DNA of 64,000 bases, from positions 128,001-192,000 of the forward strand of contig JABCTZ010000026.1 in assembly GCA_018238155.1 (NCBI GenBank), given 5' to 3'. Positions 35,217-44,447 of this stretch are shown piece by piece (positions within the stretch are counted from its first letter, which is position 1; each line of letters starts with the position of its first letter). Position numbers and translations under genes: made by a program. Under the pieces are notes generated by a model that was given only the letters and a program-made list of their open reading frames with translations, had not been told where the DNA came from and ran no database searches. This DNA comes from Candidatus Heimdallarchaeota archaeon. GTDB lineage: Archaea; Asgardarchaeota; Heimdallarchaeia; JABLTI01.

Positions 35217-38200
35217 TTATGATTCCAATGCTTTTTCCACTACTTCTTCACAAGAAATTTCTCTTAAAACTTCCTTAATGATATCAGGAGGAATCTCTAG
35301 TTTAGTTGCAATTTTCATTGGGTCAAACATTGGATCTTTCTTTCGCTCTTTTTTCGCTATTAGAGAAATCTCAGCTTTCAACCGTTCGATAGAAAAGAAA
35401 ATTGTCTGAGTGTTATTTAATACAGACATATAAAATGATGATTTGAATTCCCTTCGAATAATAGATGCAGCATCATTTGGTTGTATTTGAAACTCTTTCA
35501 CAAGATTATCGACTTCAATCCGACCCCAAAGCTCGAATTCTGAATAAAAGTAATCCCGGATAATTTTGATTTTTTGTAGAGAAATAAAAACATCTTTGTT
35601 TACTAATTGTCCAGCTATTTTTCGCCTATTTACCAAACTTTGGATAAGATATTCTGATAATGCTAATGACCGATCGGTTGTTGAGAATATTGTTCTATCA
35701 AATATTCCCTTAAGTGATAAATCATAAACAATTCTATTTCTTATTGAATTCATAATTCGTCTAATTCTTCCATGTGAAACAAACGGCAGTGCAGCAATAA
35801 CATTCCAAGCTTCATCTACTTCTGATTTATTGATCAACTTGAGTGTCTTCGAGATGCTTTTCAAGAACTTTGACTTTTTCATTTCTGTTAATTCCATTAC
35901 CCTCAAGAAAATGGTTTCCAATGAGTCCATGTCGCAACTTGCCATTCTATTTACAGCAATCTTGGTTAGCAACTCTGTTATTATTGATTCAGTGTTTTTT
36001 CTCGTGTTAACTATTCGAATATACTTCAACAAGGCATTATCATATGCATTTGCTGCTTCCTTTACTGCGCCAATATCTTCCAGCGTTTTTCCAGCTAGAG
36101 AAATAAATTTGAAGGTTAGATTTGAGGGTATTCGTGGTTGATCAATAAAAGCTATTCCTCTGTTGAAACATTTTGTAGCAATTTCTTGAGCTCGAGGATA
36201 AGCTTTCCGACGAATCGCTGAATCAGATGCAATTTGATAACACTTATAGGCTATTGTTACATCTGCATCCCATTCTCGCGTTTGGAATATTGTGCTAATC
36301 AATCTGCTTGAGCTTTCTTCATCTTTTGCATGATCAAAAGCTTCTACTGCGATTTCATAGAAATCCATTGCTTCGTGAATTTTTCCATCACGAATAACTT
36401 TATCACCAGAGTTCAGAGCAAACATGCCAATGTTTCTTAATTCAGCGTCTATACCTAATTCACTGTTCAATTTGACAGCTGCTTCTGCAAAAGCCATTGA
36501 ATCAGAGTATTTTTTCTTTTGGAAAAGTTCATTTGCAGTTTTGAAAACTGACGCTGCATAATGAATTGCTTTATTTCTACTCACTAAATCAATTAATATT
36601 ATGCCGGCATGCCTAAACTTATATGAAGCATCTTTGTTCCCTTTTCGAAGATATTTCTGTTCATTCTTCTCTACATCAACTAGTATCTTCTCTAGCTGTG
36701 CTTCATTTCTTGTGAGAGCTAATATTCGCATTAATAGTTCCACAATTTTCTTACCCAAAGAATAATTATTTTCATTTTTGGATAGTTTTTCTCCTAAACT
36801 GATTAATGCTTCAAGATAATTGCCTATTTTTTCATAAGTCACCATTGCTTTGTTTGAATTTGGCACTTCGAATGCTTCGAGACCATCAATAATGTCCTCA
36901 AGTGTAGAGAGAGCTGTTCGAGGGTTTTGTATGAATAACTGTTTGGCGAAATCCAACATTGCCATTGTTGTAGTTTCCATTAGTAAATCACTTTGAGTTC
37001 TAATAGAAATATCTCGTGCGGTTAACAATGCCTCGTAACCTCTTATCGAATGAAAGTTATTGATGAGATCTTTTGATCCAAGTTTAACGAATTCAAAACC
37101 AACTTTTTCTATATATTCAATACTATTATTTTCCATATACATTTGATAGCTAAATCCAAGCATACGGTAACTAATGTCTAATGGCGTTTCAGGATTGAAT
37201 TTCGAAATTTGTTCAAAACATTCATCTCCAATGTGCAATAATAATTCAGGTATTTGTTCTTCTAAGGCGATTTTCACTGCGAAATCTAAGTAGAAGTATC
37301 CAAGCGGTGAAGAACTGTTCGTCAAAATATCAGCATTTGCTCGTTTCATCAACAATGAAACTAATAGCGAAATCTTTTCTAGGTCATTTGTTTTCTTGAA
37401 AAATTCAACAGCATCTCGAGTAATTTTTCCAATCATATTCCATTCTGCAATGATTGTTGCTTTTAGAGCTTCAATATATGTCTCAGCAACTTTTTCATGC
37501 ATTAATTCAACAGCAATTGGATTGTTTGTTATTAATTCGAGGACCTTTGCTCCTGCAAGAGAATGCTTGTTTCTAATCGTTTCTAGGGCCAGAGTAAAAC
37601 TTAAATTAATAATTCTAGTGTTTTCTTCAGGATCAGGACTGCTCGTTGCTAAATCAAATGCTCTGTTTAAGAAGAAAATACCAATTGATGATTTTCTGTT
37701 TGGGAGATTTTTACCTGCTGCATTTAAGTAAATAGTAATTATTGATGCAAGCAAATCAAATTGCCCTATTCGTTCGACTAAAATTCTACCGCGTTCTAAA
37801 ATATGAACTGCTTTGGTTAATTCATTTCGTTCCATTAATTTTCGAGCAGAATCAATTGATTGCTTTGTTGATACAGATGCCGATTCAGCATTATTATCTT
37901 GCAGATAGTAATTAACTGCATCTTCAGAATATTTAATTGAATCTTCAATTTTCTCTGCACTAAAGTACATTGCAGAGACGATGGAACAAATATCTCCTGC
38001 CCTTGTGAAAGCTTTCGCACTATCAAAAAGATGAATAGCCATAATATAAATCTCTATAGCTAAAGAAGCATTACTATTTGTTGTTTCAGATCCTTTCTTA
38101 TATGCAATTTCACCTAACTCTATACAACCAACAATGTTTTGAGCTTGTTTTTCAATCTCAACTGCTTTATTTATTGCTAAATGACCACTATCAATAAAGC

Positions 38201-42272: not shown

Positions 42273-44447
42273 TTAAATCGATGTTTCAGGTGGAGGAGGC
42301 AATGGAGTTAACATTCCATTTTCGAGATATTTAATTAACACTTTTAGAACATCTTCTTTCGGGATATTAATTTCCCCTTGTTGATAAATAACATCAATTA
42401 ATTCTGTAACATAAAATACTTCATCATCAGTAGTTTTCAGAAAGTCAGTGTAAGCTTTTGCAATCATTTTTTCATGCTGAGAAACTGCAGTAAGTCTCAT
42501 TCTTTTTACATCTATTTTTAATGGGTAAAGATATTCTATTCGAAGATGTTTTTCTAAAATATCTGTAGAACCTGAAAAAGTAGATATGAAACCATTGAAT
42601 ACCTCTAATTCATCAGCAAACTTTTTCTCAAATTCTCGCATAAAGATTGTGATTCTTTGCTTCAGCAATGGACCTAATTTTTCACCTACTAACAGAGCAG
42701 CTTTTGATTTATGACCTTCATATATTAAAATCCAAAAGCCTTCTCTTCCAATTTCGCTGAAAACACCGTATCTCTTTTCAGTTTCACCAGCCATCTCTTC
42801 AGTAAATGTTCCAACTGCACTTAAGAAACCACTTGTTAATGAAACATCAATTTCTTTTCCAAAACCCTGACTAAATAGTGGGACACCAGAAAATGAATGA
42901 ATGAGAATTACGTGTTTTATTTTTAAAATGTCATTGAAAAATTCTGCCCCGGCATCCAAATCAGATTCAAGGTCTAAGGGAATATAATATTCCTCTTCAA
43001 TTTCCTCAAAGACTTCTTTATCTTCTTGCCATTCAAGCTCTTCGGGATTGCTAATTGCTGCTAATGAACTACCAACTTTTGATTTAATTTTTTCAATATC
43101 AGCTTGTATGTTTTGGTTAGATGTTCCAGATTGATTAGAATATGGCTGATAAGAAGAAGAATCATAGGGAGTTCCAATTGGTTCATAGGGGCTGCTATGA
43201 GATTGTGGATTAATGGTCTTTTTTGTTTTTGATTCTATTTTTTGTTTGTTTACTGGAGCAATATACTGTCTGCAACTATAACAATAGTATCGTCTATACT
43301 GTTCTATAAATCGTACTTGGGATTGACAATTTGGACAAAAGGCATTACTTGTATCAGGTTTCATAGATTGTCCGGAAGGATCACTAGCCACTTGTTGTGC
43401 AAGCTCTCTTTTTCCACCATAAGGAATGAGATCAGCATTTGGTTTTTCTTTACCTTTATCTCTAACCATATTGAATGCAATAATTCTTCTTTTATCAATT
43501 GAGAATACCAAATCATTCATCCGATTTCCATTCAAATCGCCTACTTTTAAATCAGCGATATTACCATATCCATCATAGCTTTCTATTGTATTTGAACGCA
43601 GAATATGAAACATACCTTTAGACGTACCAACAATAATCTCTAATAGTCGGTCATTGTCTACATCAGAAACTGTTCCACTAGTTATTATTCCATCAAAATT
43701 ATGGACAGACATCAATTTACTTCTTTTGAAAATACTTAATCTTCCGGAATATTCCCCGACAATTACTTCCGTTATCCCATCTCGATCAAAATCACCGGCA
43801 AAACAGAAGCTAGGTTCAGTTTCAACTTGAAATTCACCTACTAAATCAAATTTCTGAAGTTGAGGACGGAATTCAATTTCTTTAAATATACCATCTTTGT
43901 CAGCAGCAATAAACCCTGCTTGTCCATTACCATTGAAATCACCAGTCACTATTTGAGTGACCGCTTTTGAGAAAATTCTTCCAAGAGAGAATCCTCTTAT
44001 TTGATTCCACCTTTGTTTTTTCCCAGGGATTCTTTCAACCATAACTACTTCGCCGTTTTGACATCCTACAACTATTTCTGAAAGTTTGTTACCATTTAGA
44101 TCTCCAGGTGCAGAGCTAATTATACCTGAAGGTAAACGGATGCCATCTTTGATATCTTTAGTAAAGAAAGGTTTTCCATTTCGAGCATTTATTCTAATTA
44201 CTCCCTTATAATCACCAGTTACTAGTTCAAAATTACGATCTAAACTTGTTTGTGCTATACAAATTGTATTGACAGTTTCATTTATTTTAACAACATTATT
44301 TGAGAGTTGTTTAGGATGGATTATTCCAATTTCTGTACCATTCTTCACTATTCGTGCAACGAGTATTTCAGATATACCATCTGCATTGAAATCATGTGTA
44401 ATTAGTGAATGGAAATTTTCTGTTACTAATTCAAGTGTTTGTTGCAC
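42273..44447 (-). CDS. FG-GAP/VCBS beta-propeller, Zn ribbon, low-complexity linker and longin-like domain protein
   Basis: DFNADG, GDLNGN, GDFDRDG, DVDND repeats; CPNC..CYSC; HVILIHSFSGVPLF..LTSGFLSAVGTFTEEM. Confidence 0.75.
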   Translation of the reverse strand: MQQTLELVTENFHSLITHDFNADGISEILVARIVKNGTEIGIIHPKQLSNNVVKINETVNTICIAQTSLDRNFELVTGDYKGVIRINARNGKPFFTKDIKDGIRLPSGIISSAPGDLNGNKLSEIVVGCQNGEVVMVERIPGKKQRWNQIRGFSLGRIFSKAVTQIVTGDFNGNGQAGFIAADKDGIFKEIEFRPQLQKFDLVGEFQVETEPSFCFAGDFDRDGITEVIVGEYSGRLSIFKRSKLMSVHNFDGIITSGTVSDVDNDRLLEIIVGTSKGMFHILRSNTIESYDGYGNIADLKVGDLNGNRMNDLVFSIDKRRIIAFNMVRDKGKEKPNADLIPYGGKRELAQQVASDPSGQSMKPDTSNAFCPNCQSQVRFIEQYRRYYCYSCRQYIAPVNKQKIESKTKKTINPQSHSSPYEPIGTPYDSSSYQPYSNQSGTSNQNIQADIEKIKSKVGSSLAAISNPEELEWQEDKEVFEEIEEEYYIPLDLESDLDAGAEFFNDILKIKHVILIHSFSGVPLFSQGFGKEIDVSLTSGFLSAVGTFTEEMAGETEKRYGVFSEIGREGFWILIYEGHKSKAALLVGEKLGPLLKQRITIFMREFEKKFADELEVFNGFISTFSGSTDILEKHLRIEYLYPLKIDVKRMRLTAVSQHEKMIAKAYTDFLKTTDDEVFYVTELIDVIYQQGEINIPKEDVLKVLIKYLENGMLTPLPPPPETSI

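Follow-up and report, generated by a model that had tools for sequence, protein, structure and literature searches.

Neighbouring genes for a propeller-longin protein and a giant helical solenoid: proposed cytoplasmic scaffolds specific to one family of Heimdall-type Asgard archaea

The 64,000 nt stretch analysed here, referred to below as the window, is part of a contig (JABCTZ010000026.1) from a Candidatus Heimdallarchaeota archaeon, and corresponds to G000:C20:128001-192000 in a genome (G000) of 4.08 Mb that is in 46 contigs and 90.7 % complete. Two adjacent genes in this window encode P0001, which combines a beta-propeller with a longin-fold domain, and P0002, a giant helical solenoid. The reading that best fits the evidence is that they are lineage-specific large cytoplasmic scaffold proteins of one family of Heimdall-type Asgard archaea. 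The pair is built from known Asgard building blocks of the eukaryotic signature protein (ESP) type in a new arrangement. The most likely mechanism, to which we give somewhat less than an even chance, is that P0001 is a small-GTPase-linked adaptor docked on a PCI/SNAP-like platform, P0002. A preliminary description of the locus had gone further and seen in the pair a possible precursor of eukaryotic membrane trafficking related to coats or the BBSome, and that part of it is not supported.

Two constrained cytoplasmic proteins

The P0001 gene (42273..44447; all coordinates given for the pair and its parts are on the minus strand) has a GTG start and encodes 724 aa, made up of a propeller, a zinc ribbon, a linker, a longin-fold domain and a winged helix. 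The P0002 gene (35217..42137) encodes an all-helical solenoid of 2306 aa with no transmembrane (TM) helix. The two open reading frames (ORFs) are co-oriented and 135 bp apart, as originally described.

Hydrophobicity windows showed nothing characteristic of signal peptides or TM helices in either protein. In P0001 no window exceeds 1.35 and only 10 more codons are open upstream of the start, and P0001 is therefore considered to lack both, in agreement with the cytoplasmic location first proposed. The orthologs of P0001 begin at the same MQQTLE. When compared with the closest relative, P0001 has a ratio of non-synonymous to synonymous substitution rates (dN/dS) of 0.10 and P0002 one of 0.12, values within the range of the neighbouring ABC and ODP genes. 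P0001 and P0002 are real cytoplasmic proteins, constrained by purifying selection.

The spacer (42138..42272, 135 bp) separates the P0001 stop from the P0002 ATG, and contains an A/T-rich, TATA-like stretch and a GGGGA 8 nt ahead of the ATG. Directly after the P0001 stop there is a conserved block (~42231-42256), kept in eight genomes of the genus, with a consensus of about CTACTAAAAACTTATGAGT followed by a T-rich run. This block may act in termination or be part of a promoter.

Distribution of the pair

The distribution was determined in 301 Asgard genomes from across the phylum, representing 30 families and 70 genera. The end of P0002 was found in all 10 genomes of one family (f1) and in none of the 290 genomes from the 29 other families. 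The N-terminal part of P0001 (residues 1-400, propeller and zinc ribbon) was found only in a single genus of this family, g1. Genus g2 is represented by one genome that is 75 % complete, in which the P0002 ortholog is truncated at the end of a contig. Where the contigs allow, the genes for full-length P0001 and P0002 are neighbours in the same orientation in 10 of the 10 other g1 genomes, and in metagenomic records they are on shared contigs or have consecutive locus tags. The P0001 orthologs are 57-89 % identical, and all P0002 orthologs are 2302-2306 aa long. Adjacency is kept throughout the range of the pair, and that range is a single family.

The longin-fold and winged-helix module of P0001

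Residues 490-724 of P0001 were folded using AlphaFold2 (AF2) from an alignment of 46 sequences, with a predicted local distance difference test score (pLDDT) of 87 and a predicted template modelling score (pTM) of 0.83. The order of elements in the model is a helix, then b-b-a-b-b-b-a, further helices and a winged helix. The AF2 model and its structural matches place a longin-fold domain at residues 505-644 (42516..42935), and the secondary structure of the model places a C-terminal winged helix at residues 645-724 (42276..42515).

Structural matches to the longin were sought with Foldseek, by re-alignment with VIA and by running VIA exhaustively against 48,161 representatives. The top 50 were all longin or roadblock proteins, with longins ahead, and most were from complexes that regulate small GTPases or act in vesicle trafficking. 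VIA aligned 127 of 128 residues with Sec22b (Z 13.5, root-mean-square deviation (rmsd) 2.6 Å), and Z was 11.7 for synbindin, 11.3 for Ykt6 and 11.0 for a Lokiarchaeal longin (8yqg). Roadblock and Rag C-terminal domains were lower, at about 8-9. As modelled, the C-terminal domain of P0001 thus belongs to the longin superfamily at fold level, as the preliminary description had it. At the level of sequence it does not qualify as a member. Residues 500-724 had no Pfam match at E <= 1, and a search of the PDB with a profile of 46 sequences of the longin-winged-helix module brought up no longin at E <= 10, NPRL and FLCN included. P0001 therefore shares the b-b-a-b-b-b-a fold with the known longins (Sec22b, Ykt6, VAMP7, synbindin/TRAPPC4, AP sigma and the Lokiarchaeal Roadblock-Longin 8yqg) but is only 9-10 % identical to them. 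It also differs in that longins of the P0001 type are always followed by a winged helix and are mostly on the cytoplasmic side of receptor-like TM proteins. The longins of GTPase-activating proteins (GAPs; FLCN, NPRL2 and SMCR8) are marked by a conserved arginine finger and a GP motif. The b1-b2 loop of P0001 has a G-x-P (SGVP), and no Arg column is conserved across its longin family.

An exhaustive HMMER search recovered 588 cluster representatives of the longin-winged-helix family at E <= 1e-3, and the winged helix is a constant companion of this longin subtype. In most of the 47 members examined, the module starts 25-45 residues past a single TM helix, and an N-terminal signal peptide is often present. 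The ectodomains are Ig-like (Big), TSP3, SBP_5, macroglobulin (MG), LVIVD, PQQ or FG-GAP. A few members are soluble, and their fusion partners are Ras-like GTPases (P0036, P0040) or HerA-like ATPases. The Atlas neighbours of the module are all from Asgard archaea, with TM-scores of 0.70-0.74 over model residues 1-233.

With a hidden Markov model (HMM), about 22 ORFs with a longin part were identified in the window genome itself, and paralogs match the module from position 3 to 230 of the profile. Among these ORFs are single-pass receptors, three seven-TM (7TM) proteins with a C-terminal longin (G000:C41:178684-179862, C3:42964-44112 and C19:17014-18093), four-TM (4TM) proteins with an N-terminal longin (C11:62743-63756 and C41:111328-112197) and soluble forms. 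The paralog closest to the C-terminus of P0001 in this genome is C29 (G000:C29:74475-77156; L025:4476-7157), an 893 aa type-I membrane protein with a signal peptide, PQQ/FG-GAP propellers, TSP3, a TM helix, an acidic linker and the longin-winged-helix module. Proteins of ~880-936 aa with a C-terminal module of the C29 type are spread across the class. The module is thus mainly the cytoplasmic tail of receptor-like proteins and, because most members are TM receptors such as C29, P0001 is a cytosolic exception in a family of receptor tails. This agrees with the extensive lineage-specific domain shuffling published for Asgard longin and roadblock proteins (10.1101/2020.10.19.343400).

One further protein with a longin of the P0001 family is 425 aa long (G000:C17; L026:3529-5245). 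Here the longin is N-terminal and accompanied by winged helices, and the gene adjoins a 137 aa Roadblock/LC7 gene. Similar proteins of ~420-560 aa with an N-terminal longin occur across the class.

The zinc ribbon and its relatives on GTPases

The zinc ribbon of P0001 (residues 366-398; 43254..43352) has the four-Cys pattern CPNCx(13)YYCxxCxxY, and all four Cys (CPNC...CYSC), within residues 371-395, are invariant in 17 P0001 orthologs. The linker that follows (residues 399-495; 42963..43253) is of low complexity and rich in S, Y, P and Q, and the stretch from about residue 400 to 500 is the least conserved of the protein (conservation 0.40-0.57).

When the genome was searched with the motif CPxCx(8-14)[YFW]x(1-3)[YFW]CxxCxx[YFW], it was found four times, in P0001 and in three other proteins, each of which carries it at the extreme C-terminus. 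Two of these are Rab-like GTPases of 413 aa (G000:C41:38320-39561; Pfam Ras, 5e-37) and 553 aa (G000:C6:7722-9383). Both have long acidic linkers and neither has a prenylation signal, and the C-terminal ribbon may be a targeting tag used in place of prenylation. The third is a polytopic membrane protein of 467 aa with a Pro/Ser-rich tail (G000:C20:45587-46990), encoded on the same contig upstream of the window. P0001 is in this way connected to small GTPases twice, and independently, by the fusions of the longin-winged-helix module to Ras-like GTPases and by the presence of the ribbon on Rab-like GTPases.

The FG-GAP propeller

The N-terminal part of P0001 (residues 1-345; 43413..44447), which has no signal peptide, contains seven FG-GAP repeats. 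The seven repeats and their motifs can be read from the P0001 ortholog alignment (residues 1-340), and their number suggests a seven-bladed propeller. Pfam FG-GAP (PF01839) matches at 1.1e-13 (51.2 bits, cut-off 22.1) and FG-GAP_3 (PF13517) at 1.1e-12 (48.8 bits, cut-off 26.9). With Pfam scores above the cut-off and the repeats in place, P0001 is, by sequence, a member of the FG-GAP/VCBS class of beta-propellers. The propeller, four-Cys ribbon, linker and longin-like domain first recognized in P0001 are therefore all present.

A specific kinship of this propeller with those of the BBSome is not supported. The Pfam models Beta-prop_BBS7, BBS2_Mid, BBS2_N, PHTB1_N and Itfg2 all matched P0001 below their cut-offs, with 20.1 and 20.5 bits for the BBS7 and BBS2 models (cut-off 27) and 13.9 bits for Itfg2 (cut-off 27). 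The BBS7 model also matches five signal-peptide proteins of this genome, the secreted paralog C29, which has a signal peptide, matches BBS2_Mid at 2.3e-10, and other FG-GAP ORFs with signal peptides equal or beat P0001 on the BBS7 and Itfg2 models. The language-model neighbours of the propeller are FG-GAP clusters of a generic kind, and bacterial clusters are as near as those of BBS2. Propellers of this kind are already on record, as a preprint catalogues an Asgard-eukaryote structural cluster labelled BBS7/ITFG2 (10.64898/2026.10.28.762692).

These results bear on the proposal that the pair is a proto-coat or BBSome-like trafficking module, homologous to the eukaryotic machinery of propellers, solenoids and longins. 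A propeller, a solenoid and a longin are indeed combined in the cytoplasm, and the sub-threshold BBS7, BBS2_Mid, BBS2_N and PHTB1_N matches and the catalogued cluster point the same way. BBS2, BBS7 and BBS9 are also FG-GAP-like propellers partnered with TPR subunits, a likeness to the pair. However, neither a GAE nor a platform domain nor a coiled coil was detected in P0001, which has the zinc ribbon, linker, longin and winged helix instead. The protocoatomer proteins (COPI/COPII/clathrin, Nups, HOPS/CORVET and GATOR2) likewise combine a beta-propeller with an alpha-solenoid, but there a WD40 propeller and the solenoid are in one polypeptide, whereas in the pair the propeller is FG-GAP, the two are encoded by separate genes, there is no RING and the range does not extend beyond one Asgard family. 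Nor was an amphipathic or membrane-binding element identified in the pair. The link to coats and the BBSome draws only on domain classes of a generic kind. As the BBS matches are non-specific, the range is one family and the longin module is mainly a receptor tail, this link is weakened, and we regard a proto-coat as very improbable.

A different proposal arises from ITFG2, an FG-GAP subunit of KICSTOR. Under this proposal, the pair would be a KICSTOR/GATOR1-like regulator of a Rag/Rab-like GTPase, with an ITFG2-like propeller and a longin on a giant scaffold in the role of SZT2. Longin domains occur in NPRL2/3, FLCN and SMCR8. A profile of P0001 orthologs finds human ITFG2 at 9.6e-10, in an alignment of only 72 residues that spans two blades and is not limited to the Ca-loop motif. 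The matches ranked after it were far weaker (a bacterial lectin, 0.004, and BBS2, 0.15), and C29 had no match to ITFG2. Two KICSTOR-GATOR1 chains, the identity of which is unverified, are among the Foldseek matches of the longin (~295 columns). Published work describes Asgard longins that resemble GAP longins (PMC12290439; 10.1101/2020.10.19.343400).

Against this, ITFG2, although also a cytoplasmic FG-GAP propeller, has no zinc ribbon, longin or winged helix, and the only match to the Pfam Itfg2 model in the genome at E <= 0.01 is not P0001 but an ORF (C7) with a hydrophobic, signal-peptide-like N-terminus. SNARE, TRAPP and AP longins outrank GAP longins, sequence comparisons matched neither P0002 to SZT2 nor the longin profile to NPRL or FLCN, and the distribution is confined to one family. 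Counterparts of the KICSTOR partners SZT2, KPTN and KICS2 were not shown, with no search made for the last two. We consider this proposal improbable, and the same applies to its full form, in which the pair would be a prokaryotic counterpart of lysosomal KICSTOR/GATOR1-type machinery, the zinc ribbon a docking tag common to the GTPases and the adaptor, and the longin-winged-helix module the output domain by which hundreds of surface receptors in Asgard archaea are coupled to small GTPases.

The P0002 solenoid

P0002 matches Pfam SNAP (PF14938) at 1.9e-12 (47.7 bits, cut-off 25) in five stretches, with weak TPR matches beside them. The best alpha-SNAP-like segment (residues 965-1120; 38778..39245) alone scores 32 bits against the cut-off of 25. 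P0002 thus scores as a member of the alpha-SNAP family in Pfam, and this similarity may be a generic likeness among TPR proteins. Compared with itself, P0002 shows repeated modules and a duplication of ~600 residues, in which hhalign pairs residues 601-800 with 1201-1400 (probability 89) and 401-600 with 1001-1200 (probability 64). Conservation peaks at residues 750-900, 1050-1200 and 1450-1500 and is highest at 1900-2300.

The conserved end includes two winged helices in tandem followed by terminal helices (residues 2116-2306; 35220..35792; conservation 0.7-0.83). An AF2 model of residues 1880-2306 (427 residues, pLDDT 90) consists of about twelve hairpin helices, the two winged helices and the terminal helices, and the SNAP/TPR-type solenoid ending in winged helices that had been noted from the sequence is thereby corroborated. 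Foldseek ranked PCI subunits of the proteasome lid (Rpn), the COP9 signalosome (CSN) and eIF3 first (E 1.5e-4 to 1e-3, about 400 columns), and then Sec17/SNAP for the helical part. With VIA, Z was 13.5 for Sec17, 11.1 for Rpn6 and 10.2 for the tandem winged helices of UFL1-DDRGK1 (model residues 244-422), values that for helical repeats such as these are within the range reached by unrelated proteins. The likeness of P0002 to PCI and SNAP proteins is for this reason one of architecture and not of membership. P0002 has no Pfam PCI match, and a phmmer search of the PDB by sequence returned only gamma-SNAP (0.018) and no SZT2.

The end of P0002 resembles the PCI proteins (Rpn5/6/7, CSN and eIF3) and UFL1-DDRGK1, which also have hairpins followed by winged helices (VIA Z 10-11). 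However, TM-scores are 0.2-0.39, and P0002 has two winged helices rather than one, after a solenoid of 2100 residues. The twisted array of hairpins is similar to that of alpha/gamma-SNAP (Sec17), but SNAP is a single module of ~290 aa and P0002 is eight times longer and repetitive, with an rmsd of about 7 Å.

A paralog of P0002 in the same genome, C1 (G000:C1:39148-46074; L024:3149-10075), is 2308 aa long and 19 % identical, and is conserved in the genus. Also in the window, ~6 kb from the pair, a gene on the plus strand (50746-54060) encodes an 1104 aa protein whose one AAA ATPase domain spans residues 609-749. It is of note given the SNAP-like repeats of P0002, but in the divergent relative L035 the gene does not neighbour the pair.

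Evidence for and against a P0001-P0002 assembly

The complex prediction covered one pair of domains, P0002 residues 1880-2306 with P0001 residues 490-724. The scores were 0.50, 0.52 and 0.50, and three controls all scored 0.00. The runs share at least 91 % of contacts, and the pLDDT of the partners was at least 82. In the benchmark, 58 of 80 solved complexes scored high enough for a pass, as did 2 of 110 mismatched pairs, and the verdict here was 'weak support'. The prediction increases the odds of binding modestly and proves nothing. The two-subunit scaffold with an interface of the preliminary description is thus plausible, on weak support.

In the mechanism that we favour, P0001 would have arisen by replacement of the ectodomain and TM helix of a receptor with a cytosolic FG-GAP propeller and a zinc ribbon. 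Its longin-winged-helix end would dock on the conserved winged-helix end of P0002, and the assembly would provide Ras/Rab-like small GTPases with an adaptor platform, in which the longin domain and zinc ribbon of P0001 would be the GTPase-linked elements. It would not be a membrane-deforming coat.

Several observations weigh against an assembly of this kind. The benchmark band up to 0.60, in which the complex score is found, holds only 7 of the 80 solved complexes and both of the mismatches that passed, and passes in this band are more often wrong than right. There is no conserved Arg column in the longin family alignment, where the sole basic column is K582 in P0001, and no GTPase gene adjoins the pair. 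No fused or longer form of P0001 was found at E <= 1e-10 among 8000 candidates, though this is weak evidence. Judging by the spacer sequence, P0002 may possibly have a promoter of its own. The C1 paralog has no propeller-longin neighbour, and is flanked by genes for a beta-CASP nuclease and an Alg9-like glycosyltransferase and by a galactokinase-like gene. In L035, the most divergent relative (57 % identity for P0001, 49 % for P0002), a 185 aa glyoxalase gene lies between the two genes.

The gene order provides little help. In the genus, the pair is part of a collinear block of at least 19 kb, namely two ABC exporters, an MFS transporter, the pair, thioredoxin, ODP, desulfoferrodoxin, rubrerythrin and an ABC-2 transporter. 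The ABC, MFS, thioredoxin, ODP, desulfoferrodoxin and rubrerythrin genes are as collinear as the pair itself and, because the entire block is conserved, the adjacency of P0001 and P0002 says little. The neighbourhood was likewise rejected as a clue to function, since transporters, oxidative-stress and housekeeping genes are all equally syntenic.

P0001 and P0002 may accordingly be functionally independent, and neighbours only by virtue of a slowly rearranging block. P0001 would then serve GTPases or receptor tails, and P0002 and its paralog would be separate PCI/SNAP-like scaffolds. The collinear surroundings, the inserted gene in L035, the possible promoter elements and the solitary C1 solenoid are all as expected for independent genes, and in the same genomes P0002 diverges faster than P0001 (48-54 % versus 66-70 % identity). 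However, both genes share a narrow phyletic range, they stay co-oriented and adjacent or one gene apart wherever both are seen, and the complex prediction stands apart from its controls. We therefore judge independence to be rather unlikely, though it is the rival to be taken most seriously, and retain the adaptor docked on a PCI/SNAP-like platform as the preferred reading.

Other features of the window

The composition of the window is unremarkable, no tRNA or Rfam features were seen in it, and neither P0001 nor P0002 matched a PADLOC defence family. A mobile or defence island was rejected on these grounds. An NCBIfam scan returned nothing meaningful. Two ORFs on the plus strand, of 350 aa (24013-25065) and 520 aa (25179-26741), match no Pfam family at E <= 0.001.

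Significance

Forerunners of eukaryotic trafficking are being sought in Asgard genomes. The pair described here illustrates that one family can recently have invented a suggestive set of propeller, longin and solenoid, put together from shuffled Asgard domains, and for this reason it should not be counted as an ancestor of coats or of the BBSome. What the locus does provide is leads on how small GTPases are wired in Asgard archaea, namely the longin-winged-helix receptor tails, the Ras-like fusions and the Rab-like GTPases with a zinc ribbon. These are a concrete and expressible set of proteins for binding studies.

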